From a virus (Duplodnaviria > Caudoviricetes), in the IMG/VR virus record IMGVR_UViG_3300044856_000241, positions 64,001 to 128,000 of that record: DNA of 64,000 nucleotides, one strand, 5' to 3'. The translations under genes were made by a program, and so were the position numbers. The notes beneath the pieces were generated by a model. The model did no database searches. It was given only the letters and a program-made list of their open reading frames with translations, and was not told the origin of the DNA. This document shows positions 9,476 to 16,019 of the stretch, in pieces. How positions within the stretch are numbered: position 1 is the first letter of the stretch; each line of letters begins with the position of its first letter.

Positions 9476-9651
9476 AAATGCGGGTGTGGATTTGCACCAC
9501 ACATGAATGTTACCATTCTGATTGTCGGTTTCTAAGGATGAAGAACCATCGTGCTCCCAGTTAACATCCGGGTGCTATTCAGTCGTACAATTAAGTACAT
9601 TTCTCGCTTACTCGAAAACCAATCTATGTTTACCTATTCCATCACCGCATT
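9476..9651 (-). ncRNA. tRNA-like RNA (class II cloverleaf) with ~95-nt insertion in place of the anticodon loop
   Basis: AATGCGG/CCGCATT acceptor; ATG-GAATAGGTAAA-CAT D arm; GATTG/CAATC stem; GAATG-GTAA-CATTC variable arm; GTGTGG-TGCAAAT-CCACAC T arm. Confidence 0.75.
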
Positions 9652-9658
9652 GGATTAA

Positions 9659-10402
9659 TTATGCTTTATACTCAAAATACGGCATTGGCTGTACTTTGAA
9701 TAAATTCTTCTCATGCATATAATCAATCTTCTTTTTAATTTCAAGATCATCAATTTCACCTGTGCGAAGATAACGATCCAACACTGCATACGAGAATCCA
9801 AAATTCTCTTCGTCTGTTTTCCCGCATAAGCCATCTAAGGAAACTTTCTGTACAAGATGTTCTGGTAAATTAAGAACTTCTGCAATTGACCGAACTTCTG
9901 TTTTTGTAAACATTTGTAACGGAGAGAAGTCCCCTACGCTGTCCGCAAATCTGGTGTCATATCCCACGTATGTTTCTGAAAAATTACAAGTATTAGCAAC
10001 TCGTCCATTATGAGACTGTGAAACAGCATACAAGGTTGACATACGAATTCTTGCAGGAAGATTAATTTTTGTCTGCTCTGTAATATCAAAACCAGAATTA
10101 ATATGAATCCTATAAAGTAATCCACCTACTGTGTCTCCAATATTAACTACGCAGTAGTCAATACCAAGATGTTCACAAAGTTCATATGAATAATCAATGT
10201 CGCTCTGAGTACCCTGTGGCATCAATACACCATATACTCGATCAGCTCCAAGAGCCTCCACGCACAACGCCGCAACAGTAGATGAGTCGACTCCGCCACT
10301 AATCCCAACTATGGCGTTACATCCTTTACCATTGATTTCAAAAAATTCCTGTATCCACTCGACTAACTCATTTTTTACTTTTACTGCATCAAACTCAGCC
10401 AT
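9659..10402 (-). CDS. nadE: NH3-dependent NAD+ synthetase
   Basis: GISGGVDSS PP-loop, NLPARIRMSTLY, NFSETYVGY, DEENFGFSY. Confidence 0.95.
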   Translation of the reverse strand: MAEFDAVKVKNELVEWIQEFFEINGKGCNAIVGISGGVDSSTVAALCVEALGADRVYGVLMPQGTQSDIDYSYELCEHLGIDYCVVNIGDTVGGLLYRIHINSGFDITEQTKINLPARIRMSTLYAVSQSHNGRVANTCNFSETYVGYDTRFADSVGDFSPLQMFTKTEVRSIAEVLNLPEHLVQKVSLDGLCGKTDEENFGFSYAVLDRYLRTGEIDDLEIKKKIDYMHEKNLFKVQPMPYFEYKA

Positions 10403-10898
10403 TATCTAACCTCCATAATTCCACATTCTGATATTTAAAAATCTTATCAATCATCTGATACACTTCATCCCAATTAGCCCCGCCTCTACAACATCCAATC
10501 TTCCAAGGCATTGCAACTGTTGCTCCACAATTATTGTTTCTCTCGCATATTCTTCCGTTCATATGCTTGAAACACTTCTCAAGAGCATCTAAATCCGTAT
10601 ATAACTTTCCGTCATAGCCATAATTGTCCTGTGCGAACATGTTACAAATCCACTGCTCTGTATACGGTACTGCCAGACTTCCACAATCATATCCAAGATA
10701 CATTTCTTTCACAGGAACAATCTGAACCTGTCCAAGCATCTCAGGAGAGGCTACTTTACAATATTCTCTGTATACATGAGGAAATTTTTCTCTCACTTGT
10801 AAAGCAACTCCTGATCCCATACGTTTCTGACAATTAACCTGGTGGCAAATGAACTTTGCATCTGTTGTAAACAGGTCGCCATCAATCACTTTAATCAT
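10395..10898 (-). CDS. macrodomain (ADP-ribose processing) protein
   Basis: GDLF..CHQVNC..MGSGVA..MPWKIGC.RGGANW. Confidence 0.9.
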   Translation of the reverse strand: MIKVIDGDLFTTDAKFICHQVNCQKRMGSGVALQVREKFPHVYREYCKVASPEMLGQVQIVPVKEMYLGYDCGSLAVPYTEQWICNMFAQDNYGYDGKLYTDLDALEKCFKHMNGRICERNNNCGATVAMPWKIGCCRGGANWDEVYQMIDKIFKYQNVELWRLDNG

Positions 10899-12366
10899 TT
10901 ACGCCACCATTCAATCTTTCTCTGATCTCGCCAAAAGTCTGCTCTTTTACTAATTCTCCATCTTTGAAGACAAGTTTCAGTTCATTCTCTTCCGGAATAG
11001 TATCTTCTGTGTATCCGTCAGTGCACACAAACTTGTCTCCATCTTTGGTAATACAGCACAGACCTTTATGTGATTTCTTAAGATTATTTCTGTCTGTTTT
11101 CGGGTTCTTCTGAATCGTATATTCTTTACCATCAATAATACAGTAAGTACTCTTCATAGCGAATCCAAAAGTATCTCTAGTCAGACAAACCATTCCGTCC
11201 TCCGGAGTACACATTGCCGAGAATGAGAATGCACCAACACCAAACAGGATTGTATCGGCTGCAAATCCTAACTTCTCAAGTTCAGTCCAGATTTCTTTGA
11301 TTTTGCTGTACTGGCAACCATCACCGTAGATAATTCCAATCTTCGGATTCAGCTCTCTATATCCTTTAGAATTAACACTACCGCCAAAAATCTCATACAA
11401 TTTCTGTACAGTTTTTACAGAAATCTCAATAATATCTCCACTGTCAGGTCTCACAAGGAATTTACCATTATGTTCCTTAATCTCTTTTCTCAGCTTTGGA
11501 AGTGTTTCTTCAATAAGCTTCCAATAATCGAATGTATCAGACACATAGCTGAAAGAAGTATTCTTATATGTATCAGTCAGAAGTCTTCTTAATAAATTCT
11601 CCTCAGTCTCACATACGGCTAAGTTACTACATACTGTCGCATGTTCCAGACTGACTGCACCGATTCCAATATGATTCTTGGCACAATCAGCGTTATACAT
11701 CAGGTCTACATACTGTGTTGCAGGAATGGTTGAAGTCTTATCGAATGATAACAACCATGAAGAACTTGCATGGATACCATTCTCAATACCAAGACCTCTG
11801 AATCCGAAATCTGCCATAGCCATAGCAGGATTGGCACCATTTGTTGTTTTCTCGTAGAACTCATTTGCCAGTGTTCTATACTTATGTCCTACAGTTGCCC
11901 AGTTACACGTACCAAAAGTGAACGACTGAATTCCGCACTCTAACCATTGCACTACCCATGCGAAGTCTGGATGAGTATTTGTCATCTCAATACATGGAAT
12001 TCCCATATTTACTACAGATCCTTCCGGTAATGCTTTAATCTCTACTGGTAAATACTGTAAATCCCATAATTTCTCAATACGTCCAAGGTCATAACTCTGG
12101 GAACCAATCTGATTATCCAGATACTTTTTATACTCAGCAATTACTTCATCTTTTGGACGTTTAAAGAATGTATCATTTACCAGCTCAATCAGATACTCTT
12201 TGATAAATCCCTGAAGTCCAAAAAATACAACTTCATTCAGATTTTTAAACATAGACTTTCTCGGAGTAATATAAGAAGTCAGTTTTGTGAGTCCGTCCGG
12301 TAACGCATCCGGATTTGTATTTTTGTAAGTGTCAGCCATCAGCATAAAAGAAATATTTCTCATCAA
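10891..12366 (-). CDS. NAMPT/NadV-family phosphoribosyl/ADPR transferase (Namat-like) with Ser at the specificity position
   Basis: DTYK, DFGFRG, SLEH, VSDTFD, VRPDSGD, IIYGDG, RDTFGFAMK; FDKTST where NAMPT has GTDT. Confidence 0.9.
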   Translation of the reverse strand: MMRNISFMLMADTYKNTNPDALPDGLTKLTSYITPRKSMFKNLNEVVFFGLQGFIKEYLIELVNDTFFKRPKDEVIAEYKKYLDNQIGSQSYDLGRIEKLWDLQYLPVEIKALPEGSVVNMGIPCIEMTNTHPDFAWVVQWLECGIQSFTFGTCNWATVGHKYRTLANEFYEKTTNGANPAMAMADFGFRGLGIENGIHASSSWLLSFDKTSTIPATQYVDLMYNADCAKNHIGIGAVSLEHATVCSNLAVCETEENLLRRLLTDTYKNTSFSYVSDTFDYWKLIEETLPKLRKEIKEHNGKFLVRPDSGDIIEISVKTVQKLYEIFGGSVNSKGYRELNPKIGIIYGDGCQYSKIKEIWTELEKLGFAADTILFGVGAFSFSAMCTPEDGMVCLTRDTFGFAMKSTYCIIDGKEYTIQKNPKTDRNNLKKSHKGLCCITKDGDKFVCTDGYTEDTIPEENELKLVFKDGELVKEQTFGEIRERLNGGVND

Positions 12367-13292
12367 TACACCTCCATCACTTTGATCTTTTCATGTTTAC
12401 CTGTGAACAAACTATCTGTTGTAAACAGTCTCTCTACTGTATTATTCTCCAGGTCTTTGATCAAAGTTCCTTTTTCCTTATCAAGTACAGAATTCTCACA
12501 ATGAGTTGCATAAGCGTAAACTTTCTCTGGTTTGTAATTCATTAATTCTTGCACACCATAGTGTATTGAACCACCGTAACTAATAAGATCGTCAAGTACC
12601 AATACAATCTTGTTTTCCAGATTAATGCCATTTGTTCTAATATCAATTCCAAGAATCTTACCAGTCTCCCAATCACGTTTCTTCTCTCCATAGCAGTATC
12701 TAAACTGAGGGAACATGTCAGCATAACGTTTTGAAGCACTATAATCTGGGAAATACAGTACTAATTTAGAATCATCAAACACTGAATTTTCATAAGTGTC
12801 AGAAACTACATCATTTTTAATATCTGAGAATTCCGTAACTACTTCTTTTTCTATATTCTCGTTTCTAATTTCGTCAATTGCTTTCTGGATAAAATTCTTA
12901 GGAGATTTATTGATACAATTATTAAGAAGTGCTACAGATACATTGCTATGAGCATCCAGAATGAATACTCGTGAAAAATTAAGTGAATTGATTACATCAC
13001 AAAAATACTTAAGTGTGAATACTTCACAATCTCTTTTAGTTCTGTCCATCCGTCCATTTGGAATATAATCCATTGTCAATAAGTATGTAACATCTGCTAA
13101 ATTTGCATCCAGATGTTTTTTAATCATAGTCAGATACATCAACTCTGCATCATTTTCATATTTCCATCTGATATGTATATACGATGTTGATCCATCTGTG
13201 AAATCTGGAATATCATCAACATCCAGATTAATTCGTGGTGTTCCATCAGGATAATGTTCAATCTTTACTTCTAGTTCATTTACACTAATCAT
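12363..13292 (-). CDS. PRPP-synthetase-like protein (probable ADPR-PP synthetase, Adps-like)
   Basis: YPDGT, YIPNGRMDR, DAHS, FPDYSASKRY, KKRD, LDDLISYGGS, YATH; adjacent to the NAMPT homologue. Confidence 0.88.
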   Translation of the reverse strand: MISVNELEVKIEHYPDGTPRINLDVDDIPDFTDGSTSYIHIRWKYENDAELMYLTMIKKHLDANLADVTYLLTMDYIPNGRMDRTKRDCEVFTLKYFCDVINSLNFSRVFILDAHSNVSVALLNNCINKSPKNFIQKAIDEIRNENIEKEVVTEFSDIKNDVVSDTYENSVFDDSKLVLYFPDYSASKRYADMFPQFRYCYGEKKRDWETGKILGIDIRTNGINLENKIVLVLDDLISYGGSIHYGVQELMNYKPEKVYAYATHCENSVLDKEKGTLIKDLENNTVERLFTTDSLFTGKHEKIKVMEVY

Positions 13293-13969
13293 AAGCTATA
13301 TTCTTCCTCTCTAATTCTTTTATACTCTGTATATATTCTATTCTCACAATAATACAGATTGTAATCACACTGCTCGATATACCACCATAATTTCTGATGT
13401 CCAAGACGAAGGTAATCTTCCAAATAATGCTGTTCTTCGTAATTGTTGCCAACCATCTGACGGAAACTTAATTCATCAATATCAGAACTATTTTTCACAA
13501 ACAATGCAATATCCATAATGTCATTAATGCTATAATTTTCAGTTACAACAAATACAACTCTTACAATCTCTCTACCAGTTCTTTTAATATGGGAAAGTTG
13601 CTCATAACTATTCGCATGATATACAACACGATAACAATCATAAAATGGGAAAGATGTTTCATCTGTCATATAGCTTGTGTGCATTTCTACCGGAATTTGA
13701 CGTTCTTTATTGTTGCGATAAACATTACGTTTATGTACTATACTGAAAAATTTTCGATACCAATCAATATGTTTTTCATATTCATGAAGTGGATCCCCAC
13801 CTCCAGAAAGAGAGATAATATTGCAGTTATTTTCTTTTAACACATCTTCCAAACAATCCAGCCCACCAATTGTACTTTTTGGAATCTGGAGATTGTTGTT
13901 TGTCACAATACAATAAGGACATTTATAATGACAGCCAAAATTTGTAATTACACTCAAATATTTATCCAT
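13289..13969 (-). CDS. short radical SAM protein
   Basis: CHYKCPYC CxxxCxxC motif, SLSGGGDPL. Confidence 0.85.
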   Translation of the reverse strand: MDKYLSVITNFGCHYKCPYCIVTNNNLQIPKSTIGGLDCLEDVLKENNCNIISLSGGGDPLHEYEKHIDWYRKFFSIVHKRNVYRNNKERQIPVEMHTSYMTDETSFPFYDCYRVVYHANSYEQLSHIKRTGREIVRVVFVVTENYSINDIMDIALFVKNSSDIDELSFRQMVGNNYEEQHYLEDYLRLGHQKLWWYIEQCDYNLYYCENRIYTEYKRIREEEYSL

Positions 13970-13970
13970 C

Positions 13971-14471
13971 TTATTCTCCAATCACTGTAATCTGACAACT
14001 CTTCATAACTTCCATCGCTGCTCTGTGAGCCTGTGGTGTAGTTCCGGCACAACAACTTGCATCTACAATAATCTCCGCGAATGGATAAATTGTTTTAAGA
14101 ATCAGTGCATTTGTTACTACACAGATATTTGATACAAGTCCTACAATGTGAATTTCTTCAAACTGATTACAAAGCTCTCTCCAATGTCTCCATCCAAAGG
14201 TATTTTTATCAATATATCTACAATTTGGTTGTTCTAAGCCATCAACAATTTTCCATCCATCAGTATTTTCAATACAATGCGGAATCGGCAACTTCTTACC
14301 TTCAGGCGTGTTTAAATAATCTTCGTTGTGTGTATCTCTTGTAAAAATCAAATCTCCATCCCATTCTTCAATCTTCTTTTTAACTTTCGGGACGATTGCT
14401 CTAGCTTCAGGTGTCCCTAAGCAACCCGTCACAAAATCATTTTGCATGTCGATCACAATCAATAACTTCAT
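13971..14471 (-). CDS. pncA: nicotinamidase / isochorismatase-family cysteine hydrolase
   Basis: IDMQNDF, RDTH, PHC, K, GLVSNICV catalytic D-K-C triad. Confidence 0.88.
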   Translation of the reverse strand: MKLLIVIDMQNDFVTGCLGTPEARAIVPKVKKKIEEWDGDLIFTRDTHNEDYLNTPEGKKLPIPHCIENTDGWKIVDGLEQPNCRYIDKNTFGWRHWRELCNQFEEIHIVGLVSNICVVTNALILKTIYPFAEIIVDASCCAGTTPQAHRAAMEVMKSCQITVIGE

Positions 14472-14664
14472 TTTCCATCTCTCCTTTTTCATACTCATCC
14501 AACTTTGAATTCATCATATCCTGTTGAACCATGCTTCTATATAACCTATTCTCTTTACACCAATCACAACTTCCATGATTCCTGCATGTACTGTCAATAG
14601 CTTTACATCCGGTATACGGTTTTCTATACTCTTTCTTGTGTTTTATAGCTTTATCCAATGACAT
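14437..14664 (-). CDS. small Cys/His hypothetical phage protein
   Basis: CRNHGSCDWC; RBS GAGGTG. Confidence 0.7.
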   Translation of the reverse strand: MSLDKAIKHKKEYRKPYTGCKAIDSTCRNHGSCDWCKENRLYRSMVQQDMMNSKLDEYEKGEMENEVIDCDRHAK

Positions 14665-15177: not shown

Positions 15178-15270
15178 TTATTTATTCTTTTTTAACTTTC
15201 CTACGACAAAACCTGCTCCAAAACACGCACCAAAACAAATTAGGAAGATTCCGATATTTAATACGATCAT
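15178..15270 (-). CDS. 30-aa single-TM peptide
   Basis: MIVLNIGIFLICFGACFGAGFVVGKLKKNK; start overlaps the PspA stop; not in the track. Confidence 0.65.
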   Translation of the reverse strand: MIVLNIGIFLICFGACFGAGFVVGKLKKNK

Positions 15271-16019
15271 CACTTATTACCTCTCTGTCTCTTCATGTCA
15301 TCAAGAATCTGACGAGCATTACGTTCTCTTTCAGAATTAGCAAGTCTTCTTTCATTAGCCTGTGCACTAGAATCATATGCAATTCTACTTCCTTCGGCAC
15401 GTTCTCTAGTTTTTCTAGCCCCCTCACGGACTCTTTCAAGCATTCTATCACTCTCATTGTTTGTGTTGAGATTGTCCATGCTCTGATGAAGTTCAATAAT
15501 CTGACTATCTGCTTCCATTTGGAAAAGTACTTGTTCTTTTTCCTCTTTTAATTTCTGTAAATCTTCTGCTGCCTGATCACGAATTTCTTTCTGATGAGCC
15601 TGTGCTACTTTCATTTCTTCAATGGCATCTTTTAACACATTAATCTTATTCTCTAAAGTAGATTTCTTCATCGCATACTGCATTGCTTCATCTTCCTTAT
15701 TCTCATCAAGACAAGCATTAATCTGCTGTGTAACACGCATAATATCTTTGTTTGCTTGATACATATCTTTTTCTGCTGTATCACGTTTTCCAGAAATATC
15801 AGCATATGTAATAGAAGCTTTGTTATAGAAATCTTCTTTTTCTCTGATTGCAGCATTATAATAATCTCTTGCCCCTTCTGGAGTTTGCGCATCTTGGCGC
15901 ATTACTTCATCTGTTCTGCCACGAAGTTTTACACGAAGCTGTTTCCCAAATGGAGTAAAGAACAGAACTGCTGCAATTAAAATAATCGCCACAATCACAA
16001 TAAACATAAAATTTGTCAT
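15270..16019 (-). CDS. PspA/IM30-family coiled-coil protein with N-terminal TM anchor
   Basis: TM segment, then TPEG..YYNAAI, long coiled coil, ..DENKEDEAMQYA. Confidence 0.75.
   Translation of the reverse strand: MTNFMFIVIVAIILIAAVLFFTPFGKQLRVKLRGRTDEVMRQDAQTPEGARDYYNAAIREKEDFYNKASITYADISGKRDTAEKDMYQANKDIMRVTQQINACLDENKEDEAMQYAMKKSTLENKINVLKDAIEEMKVAQAHQKEIRDQAAEDLQKLKEEKEQVLFQMEADSQIIELHQSMDNLNTNNESDRMLERVREGARKTRERAEGSRIAYDSSAQANERRLANSERERNARQILDDMKRQRGNK

Follow-up and report, generated by a model that had tools for sequence, protein, structure and literature searches.

The window analysed here, a stretch of 64,000 nucleotides comprising bases 64001-128000 of the complete IMG/VR phage genome IMGVR_UViG_3300044856_000241 (203,624 bp, about 34% G+C), carries an operon with which this 204-kb phage of gut Firmicutes most likely rebuilds NAD+ via nicotinic acid instead of nicotinamide. 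Based on comparative genomics, we are confident of a nicotinate route comprising a nicotinamidase (PncA), a nicotinate-accepting transferase of the Namat type and a final amidation by NadE, and we somewhat favour a classification of the operon as a deamidated, nicotinate-type version of the phage pathway NARP1-AP. The identities of the genes, the residue changes in the transferase and its strict linkage with PncA and NadE were observed directly.

NARP1 and NARP1-AP combine the enzymes Adps and Namat, with the macrodomain protein Adpp, and are known from phages SPbetaL1, ICP1, Bas63 and Vibrio phage Gary (bioRxiv 10.1101/2024.02.11.579819; 10.64898/2026.01.28.702374; PMC12774641; PMC13586617). 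In the window, six open reading frames (ORFs) are located on the minus strand at 9659-14498, each overlapping its neighbour by 4-11 nt, which bears out the contiguous, co-oriented cluster of six genes proposed in an initial annotation of this DNA. The features are as follows (window positions).

13971-14471, minus strand: PncA-type nicotinamidase, in an ORF open to 14498 (PF00857 Isochorismatase, E 1e-21)
13289-13981, minus strand: small CxxxCxxC protein, radical-SAM-like, 230 aa (phrog_17662, E 1e-65)
12363-13292, minus strand: Adps-like Prs homologue, predicted ADP-ribose (ADPR) pyrophosphokinase (phrog_619, E 1e-54)
10891-12366, minus strand: Namat-lineage transferase with Ser212, predicted nicotinate ADPR-transferase (phrog_448, E 6e-145; NAMPT_N and NAPRTase domains)
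11731-11739, minus strand: codons Lys210-Thr211-Ser212 of the transferase (Gly-Thr-Asp in the alignment columns of Asp-type Namat and NAMPT)
11188-11217, minus strand: 10-residue insertion (residues 384-393 of the transferase) in the region of the adenine "selectivity clamp" helix (alignment gap in all Asp-type sequences)
10395-10898, minus strand: Poa1p-like macrodomain, predicted Adpp, ADPR-1''-phosphate to ADPR (PF01661, E 5e-5; phrog_335 "phosphatase", E 5e-40)
9659-10402, minus strand: NadE, NH3-dependent NAD+ synthetase of the short type (PF02540, E 9e-49; TIGR00552)
9484-9502, minus strand: terminator-like hairpin 3' of NadE (consensus scan only; not above regional chance)

In the proposed cycle, a defence NADase would split NAD+ into nicotinamide and ADPR or ADPR-1''-phosphate. 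PncA would convert the nicotinamide to nicotinate, the macrodomain protein would take off the 1''-phosphate where needed, and the Adps-like enzyme would turn ADPR into ADP-ribose pyrophosphate (ADPR-PP). The transferase, in which Ser takes the place of the selecting Asp and Lys that of the Gly two positions earlier, would then join nicotinate and ADPR-PP to nicotinic acid adenine dinucleotide (NaAD), from which NadE would form NAD+ under consumption of ATP. We infer all of these substrate assignments, that of ADPR-PP to the transferase in particular. On balance, we expect the direct formation of NaAD from nicotinate and ADPR-PP, as judged from sequence. The deamidated pathway had been put forward in the initial annotation; its core of PncA, nicotinate transferase and NadE stood up to the analysis, while the NaAD-forming step stays a prediction, beside which a route through phosphoribosyl pyrophosphate (PRPP) and nicotinic acid mononucleotide (NaMN) keeps a lesser probability.

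The base-binding pocket of the transferase

Among solved structures, two of SPbetaL1 Namat were the best relatives of the transferase (E 8e-96). It scored 324 bits against SPbetaL1 Namat (PDB 9w5x), 264 bits against H. ducreyi NadV and 254 bits against ICP1 Namat, but only 133 bits against human NAMPT and 129 bits (28% identity) against KVP40 NAMPT. PDB 9ke8, considered as a second Namat, was dropped since the entry is H. ducreyi NadV. The AlphaFold model of the transferase, with a predicted local distance difference test (pLDDT) of 93.3, matches the global fold of 9w5x with a template modelling (TM) score of 0.91, and the catalytic His, Arg and Asp of the NAMPT core are conserved together with the TRD motif.

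The segment FDKTST spans residues 208-213 of the transferase, and the codon of Ser212 lies at 11731-11733, precisely where the initial annotation had located it. With no gap nearby, Ser212 aligns with Asp215 of SPbetaL1 Namat, the counterpart of human Asp219, and this alignment supports the assumed equivalence of S212 and human D219. Asp215 of SPbetaL1 Namat hydrogen-bonds nicotinamide (PMC12774641), and in a review table that refers to Khan 2006, human NAMPT D219S is given as a mutant with switched substrate affinity (PMC4919578).

Two sets of loci were compared. Scanning IMG/VR with the window's transferase yielded 80 loci of 46-95% identity, which together with GenBank MT835544 make 81, and a control scan that used Namat from Bacillus phage PBC2 as its seed yielded 81 Asp-type loci. 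Alignment column 212 holds Ser in 64 and Ala in three of the sequences of the window's clade (n = 67), compared to Asp in 65/65 controls; column 210 holds Lys in 64/67, compared to Gly in 65/65. Considering both this clade and a second, more distant lineage described below, three pocket sites co-vary (human numbering), namely His191 to Ala, Ser or Gly, Gly217 to Lys or Arg, and Asp219 to Ser or Ala. Such a swap, in which an anionic residue is lost and a cationic one gained, would fit an anionic substrate such as nicotinate. With human NAMPT D219S, whose affinity is reported to be shifted to nicotinate, the window's enzyme shares the Ser at the same position; unlike the mutant, it is a natural enzyme encoded in a phage operon, showing Lys at the Gly217 site and no His191.

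Linkage of the altered pocket to PncA and NadE

Across the 81 clade loci the selecting site is Ser in 78 and Ala in three, and 98 related loci with Ser or Ala at the Asp219 site were found overall. PncA was identified in 76 of the 81, the Adps-like gene in 78, and the macrodomain and NadE in 75 each. Where PncA, the Adps-like gene or NadE is missing, the contig is cut, with the exception of the intact locus L080, which has no PncA or Adps match within 10 kb; the macrodomain is absent from six intact loci. The 81 control loci, all with Asp at the site, revealed PncA in 0/81 and NadE in 0/81. The second lineage is made up of Phass-1, a gut phage that uses genetic code 15, and ten of its relatives in IMG/VR; its transferase shares 32% identity with that of the window. 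In all 11 loci the site is Ala and the residue two positions earlier is Arg; each locus carries PncA, an Adps-like gene and NadE, and none has a macrodomain or an NMNAT. Linkage of PncA and NadE to the Ser/Ala enzyme is kept over 32-95% identity despite changes in gene order, and co-occurrence of Ser or Ala with pncA and nadE was seen, apart from L080, in every locus of adequate length from both lineages. In the Phass-1 record OQ749652 (L180:5480-9918), nicotinamidase, Prs and NAMPT are annotated; NadE (307 aa), which lies next to them, and a gene of 139 aa are left hypothetical.

Six contigs from bacterial genomes place the clade in gut Bacillota, namely in Thomasclavelia, Ruminococcus, Agathobacter and Acutalibacteraceae. 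Among 50,697 GenBank phage records, NadE homologues occur in 52 and a Namat/NAMPT homologue in 2040. Three short gut contigs carry NadE without the cluster. The NadE of cyanophages and a pelagiphage, tried as an independent test of the linkage, proved uninformative, lying in glycosyl/carbamoyl-transferase clusters without NAD genes. In Synechococcus phage Bellamy (L181) and Pelagibacter phage HTVC008M (L182), the "NAD synthetase" is found among genes for glycosyltransferase, carbamoyltransferase and UDP-glucose dehydrogenase; the lack of NAD genes nearby suggests that the NadE of marine myophages may be a sugar-modification amidotransferase.

The partner proteins

With an AAGGAG site in front of it, the ATG at 14471 is probably the start of PncA, as the initial annotation had it. 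The closest PDB match of this protein is P. horikoshii PncA (1ilw/1im5), and in the alignment to it the catalytic Asp-Lys-Cys and the metal-binding Asp-His-His are identical at 6/6 positions. NadE scored 166.5 bits on TIGR00552 (cut-off 63.65), its top PDB matches being 2e18, 3p52 and 3fiu.

The macrodomain was assigned to the NARP1-AP type by its PF01661 and phrog_335 family matches, and its homologues are found in 770 phage records, part of them annotated as Poa1p-like. In NARP1-AP, the Poa1p-like macrodomain phosphatase Adpp converts ADPR-1''-phosphate to ADPR (bioRxiv 10.64898/2026.01.28.702374), with which the earlier proposal that the macrodomain supplies ADPR agrees. Its presence in 93% of the clade loci (75/81) compares to 16% of the Asp-type NARP1 controls (13/81), the latter being near the published 15%.

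The CxxxCxxC protein had been taken for a radical SAM enzyme. Its motif is present and its N-terminus is weakly NrdG2-like (E 8e-4), but a recognisable radical SAM domain was not found, as it gave no radical SAM match in Pfam and no match in the PDB. It occurs in only 11 of the 81 related loci, typically 5-7 kb from the NAD genes, and is thus best seen as an accessory passenger, its position inside the operon here being a local rearrangement.

ADPR-PP or PRPP as the donor

By sequence, the transferase groups with Namat rather than NAMPT and the Prs-like enzyme with Adps rather than Prs, which we count in favour of ADPR-PP as the donor, along with the enrichment of the ADPR-producing macrodomain in the clade. 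The Adps-like protein matches ICP1 Adps, whose activity was proven biochemically (PMC13586617), with 27% identity and E 5e-20, compared to E 4.5e-7 for B. subtilis Prs, and on TIGR01251 it reached 56 bits, below the cut-off of 113. It keeps Arg87, His121, Asp161, Lys185, Asp212 and Asp213 of ICP1 Adps, and among isolated phages it is most closely related to Adps from the NARP1 operons of Bacillus phages. In the transferases, the residue equivalent to Namat Phe392, which stacks on the adenine, is Phe in 67/67 sequences, where NAMPT has Gly. The published motif of the selectivity-clamp helix reads GS-X-phi-X-phi-X-phi-TRD with aromatic X (PMC12774641); the window's transferase keeps the first two aromatics (Phe380, Phe382) and the TRD but not the third aromatic, and the distant Phass-1 enzyme has the motif intact. 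Since the window's genome is without NMNAT, NadD and Nudix, the five enzymes alone would close the NAD+ cycle.

A number of features weigh against this choice of donor. In the Adps-like protein, Asp216 of Adps is replaced by Ser, as it also is in PBC2-type Adps, and the adenine-contacting Phe92 is replaced by Lys in the window and by Lys or His in Adps-like proteins, His being the canonical Prs residue. An attempt to tell the use of ADPR from that of ribose-5-phosphate by the Adps residues failed, these being mixed. In the transferase, the 10-residue insertion (384-393) replaces the third clamp aromatic in the region of Namat Tyr396, and the clamp residues Arg40 and Ser391 are changed to Met and Ala, respectively; with the clamp altered in this way, adenine recognition may be changed or lost. 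The insertion is modelled as an ordered beta-hairpin (AlphaFold, pLDDT about 90), and in the window's phage the hairpin is flanked by two Cys. Similarity to Namat is no proof of ADPR-PP use either, because NadV, which was crystallised with nicotinamide mononucleotide (NMN), scores 264 bits compared to the 254 bits of ICP1 Namat. The co-occurrence counts are likewise not independent events: in the trees, the Ser/Ala clade is monophyletic and sister to the sampled Asp-type Namats, with Phass-1 joining weakly (support 0.67), so that one or two origins account for all Ser/Ala loci. A nesting of the clade within the validated Namats was rejected, as the tree places it outside them, and from this sister position an ancestral use of ADPR-PP cannot be argued.

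A further point against ADPR-PP is the NadM-type NMNAT that was found in 5/9 related genomes tested and within 10 kb in 19/81 loci. This NadM/archaeal-type NMN adenylyltransferase of about 190 aa is encoded, for example, at L164:1453-2028, L165:1372-1962 (minus strand) and L066:9380-9925. It follows directly after NadE in L034 and sits between the Adps-like and Namat genes in L066, and this mid-operon copy suggests a mononucleotide intermediate in at least some members. No NMNAT is present in the window's genome, in the related genomes G007 and G008, or in Phass-1. In our reading, the NMNAT of the relatives is an optional addition by which a second branch, through PRPP, is opened in parallel; in vitro, Namat is still active with PRPP (PMC12774641).

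These observations speak for a phage Preiss-Handler salvage on a NAMPT-fold enzyme, a route that we hold to be less likely but a serious rival. Here, PncA would deliver nicotinate and the Prs-like enzyme PRPP, from which the Ser212 transferase would make NaMN, to be converted to NaAD by host NadD or a phage NadM-type NMNAT and then amidated by NadE, with the macrodomain serving another purpose. The NMNAT genes of the relatives, above all the mid-operon copy of L066, the PRPP activity that Namat retains, the clamp changed by the insertion and by Arg40 to Met, and the replacement of Adps Phe92 by Lys would all be in line with it, and salvage and Preiss-Handler gene sets have been annotated in gut jumbo phages, although with neither the residue switch nor an ADPR-PP/NaAD step (PMC11662467). 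On the other hand, true Preiss-Handler phages such as LR756501 use a PncB-type nicotinate phosphoribosyltransferase (NAPRT) and no Prs, whereas the Prs-like gene of the window is of the Adps lineage and far from Prs. Moreover, the Poa1p-like ADPR-1''-phosphatase, enriched to 93%, has no role in such a route, and the genomes named above lack any NMNAT. LR756501 itself (L187:9959-18432), from a 735-kb uncultured phage, carries an unannotated cluster of PncB-type NAPRT, NadE, a TonB-dependent receptor, PnuC, a NadR-like NMNAT/kinase and PncA, with no Prs-like gene; this cluster is a bacterial-style island for the salvage of nicotinate and nicotinamide riboside.

Very unlikely is a route of the Francisella type, in which nicotinate would be turned into NaMN, NadE would act as NMN synthetase (NaMN to NMN) and an NMNAT would form NAD+. 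NadE is of the short type, the F. tularensis enzyme (3fiu) is its third-best PDB match, and the adenylyltransferase of the relatives is of the nominally NMN-preferring NadM type; against this, the window's genome and several relatives lack any NMNAT, and as NadD of Firmicutes has a strong preference for NaMN, NMN would lead no further. Just as improbable is an ordinary NARP1-AP still running on nicotinamide, with PncA and NadE as unrelated neighbouring auxiliary metabolic genes: Khan and co-workers are said to have found human D219S still able to use nicotinamide, but PncA would destroy this substrate, and the two genes are tied to the Ser/Ala enzyme across both lineages and to none of the Asp-type loci.

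Comparison with known NAD+ pathways

Like NARP1 and NARP1-AP, the operon has adjacent genes of the Adps and Namat lineages (4-nt overlap) and a Poa1p-like macrodomain, and Adps Lys185 is kept. It differs from NARP1 in the window's enzyme, where Namat Asp215 is replaced by Ser, Gly213 by Lys and the His before Asp-Phe by Ala, in the 10-residue hairpin in the clamp, in having PncA and NadE as obligate partners, and in its predicted product, which would be NaAD and not NAD+. With the Preiss-Handler pathway (PncA, PncB, NadD, NadE) it has in common that the route would open with the deamidation of nicotinamide and close with the return of the amide by NadE; PncA and NadE are ordinary members of their families. 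Unlike that pathway, the window's genome has no PncB-type NAPRT (the transferase shows NAMPT_N and no NAPRTase_N), no NadD and no NMNAT, and its transferase, which is of the Namat lineage, is accompanied by an Adps-like kinase and an ADPR-1''-phosphatase.

NARP2 (NAMPT with NMNAT/Nudix, KVP40) and NARP3 (PnuC and NadR, Bas30; PMC13464706) are likewise phage-encoded restorations of NAD+; unlike them, the window's genome has neither the NMNAT/Nudix of the former nor PnuC or a PF01467 protein as in the latter. The relatives with an added NadM-type NMNAT look like hybrids. The initial annotation had called the route a third one, a name that NARP3 already occupies (PMC13464706). None of the published NARP1, NARP1-AP, NARP2 and NARP3 involves nicotinate, PncA or NadE, and full-text literature searches (NaAD with ADPR-PP; nicotinamidase with NARP1) gave nothing relevant and no paper on a nicotinate route, so a nicotinate-type variant of NARP1 is apparently undescribed.

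Genome context

The lack of NadD/NMNAT, first noted for the cluster, extends to the complete 203,624-bp genome, in which no PF01467 adenylyltransferase was matched. Nudix (PF00293) and PnuC (PF04973) gave no match across the genome either, and the Namat-like gene is its sole member of the NAPRTase family. A promoter scan of the operon region gave no signal above chance, and megablast of the operon against GenBank phages returned zero matches. Just upstream of the operon, at window positions 15270-16019, a PspA/IM30-like protein (under the Pfam cut-off) is encoded. Outside the window, the same phage encodes an NAD+-dependent DNA ligase of the LigA type (G000:C1:35613-36308, 664-aa open frame), and it therefore has an NAD+ demand of its own.

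Implications

Taken as a whole, we give an even chance to the view that phages of gut Firmicutes use a new activity, a nicotinate ADPR-transferase, in a cycle of PncA, Adps, transferase and NadE, with or without Adpp. If the transferase joins nicotinate to ADPR-PP, this would be a new reaction of NAD+ metabolism, through which NAD+ biosynthesis gains an additional point of entry. The enzyme would also provide a natural case of the specificity switch at Asp219, so far known from a human NAMPT mutant. Current annotations call such genes "NAMPT" and "Prs" and treat the sets as ordinary salvage genes.

The route raises the question of why a phage would spend an extra ATP and two extra genes, possible reasons being a host nicotinamidase, a thermodynamic pull, or defences by which nicotinamide is removed. 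Unavailability or removal of nicotinamide in the hosts may have led to the evolution of the cycle; that NaAD forms a pool shielded from defence NADases, as was also suggested in the initial annotation, is pure speculation. If true, the pathway would be a fourth kind of phage NAD+ reconstitution, adding a new layer to the arms race over NAD+, and one that is widespread among the large phages infecting Firmicutes of the human and animal gut.

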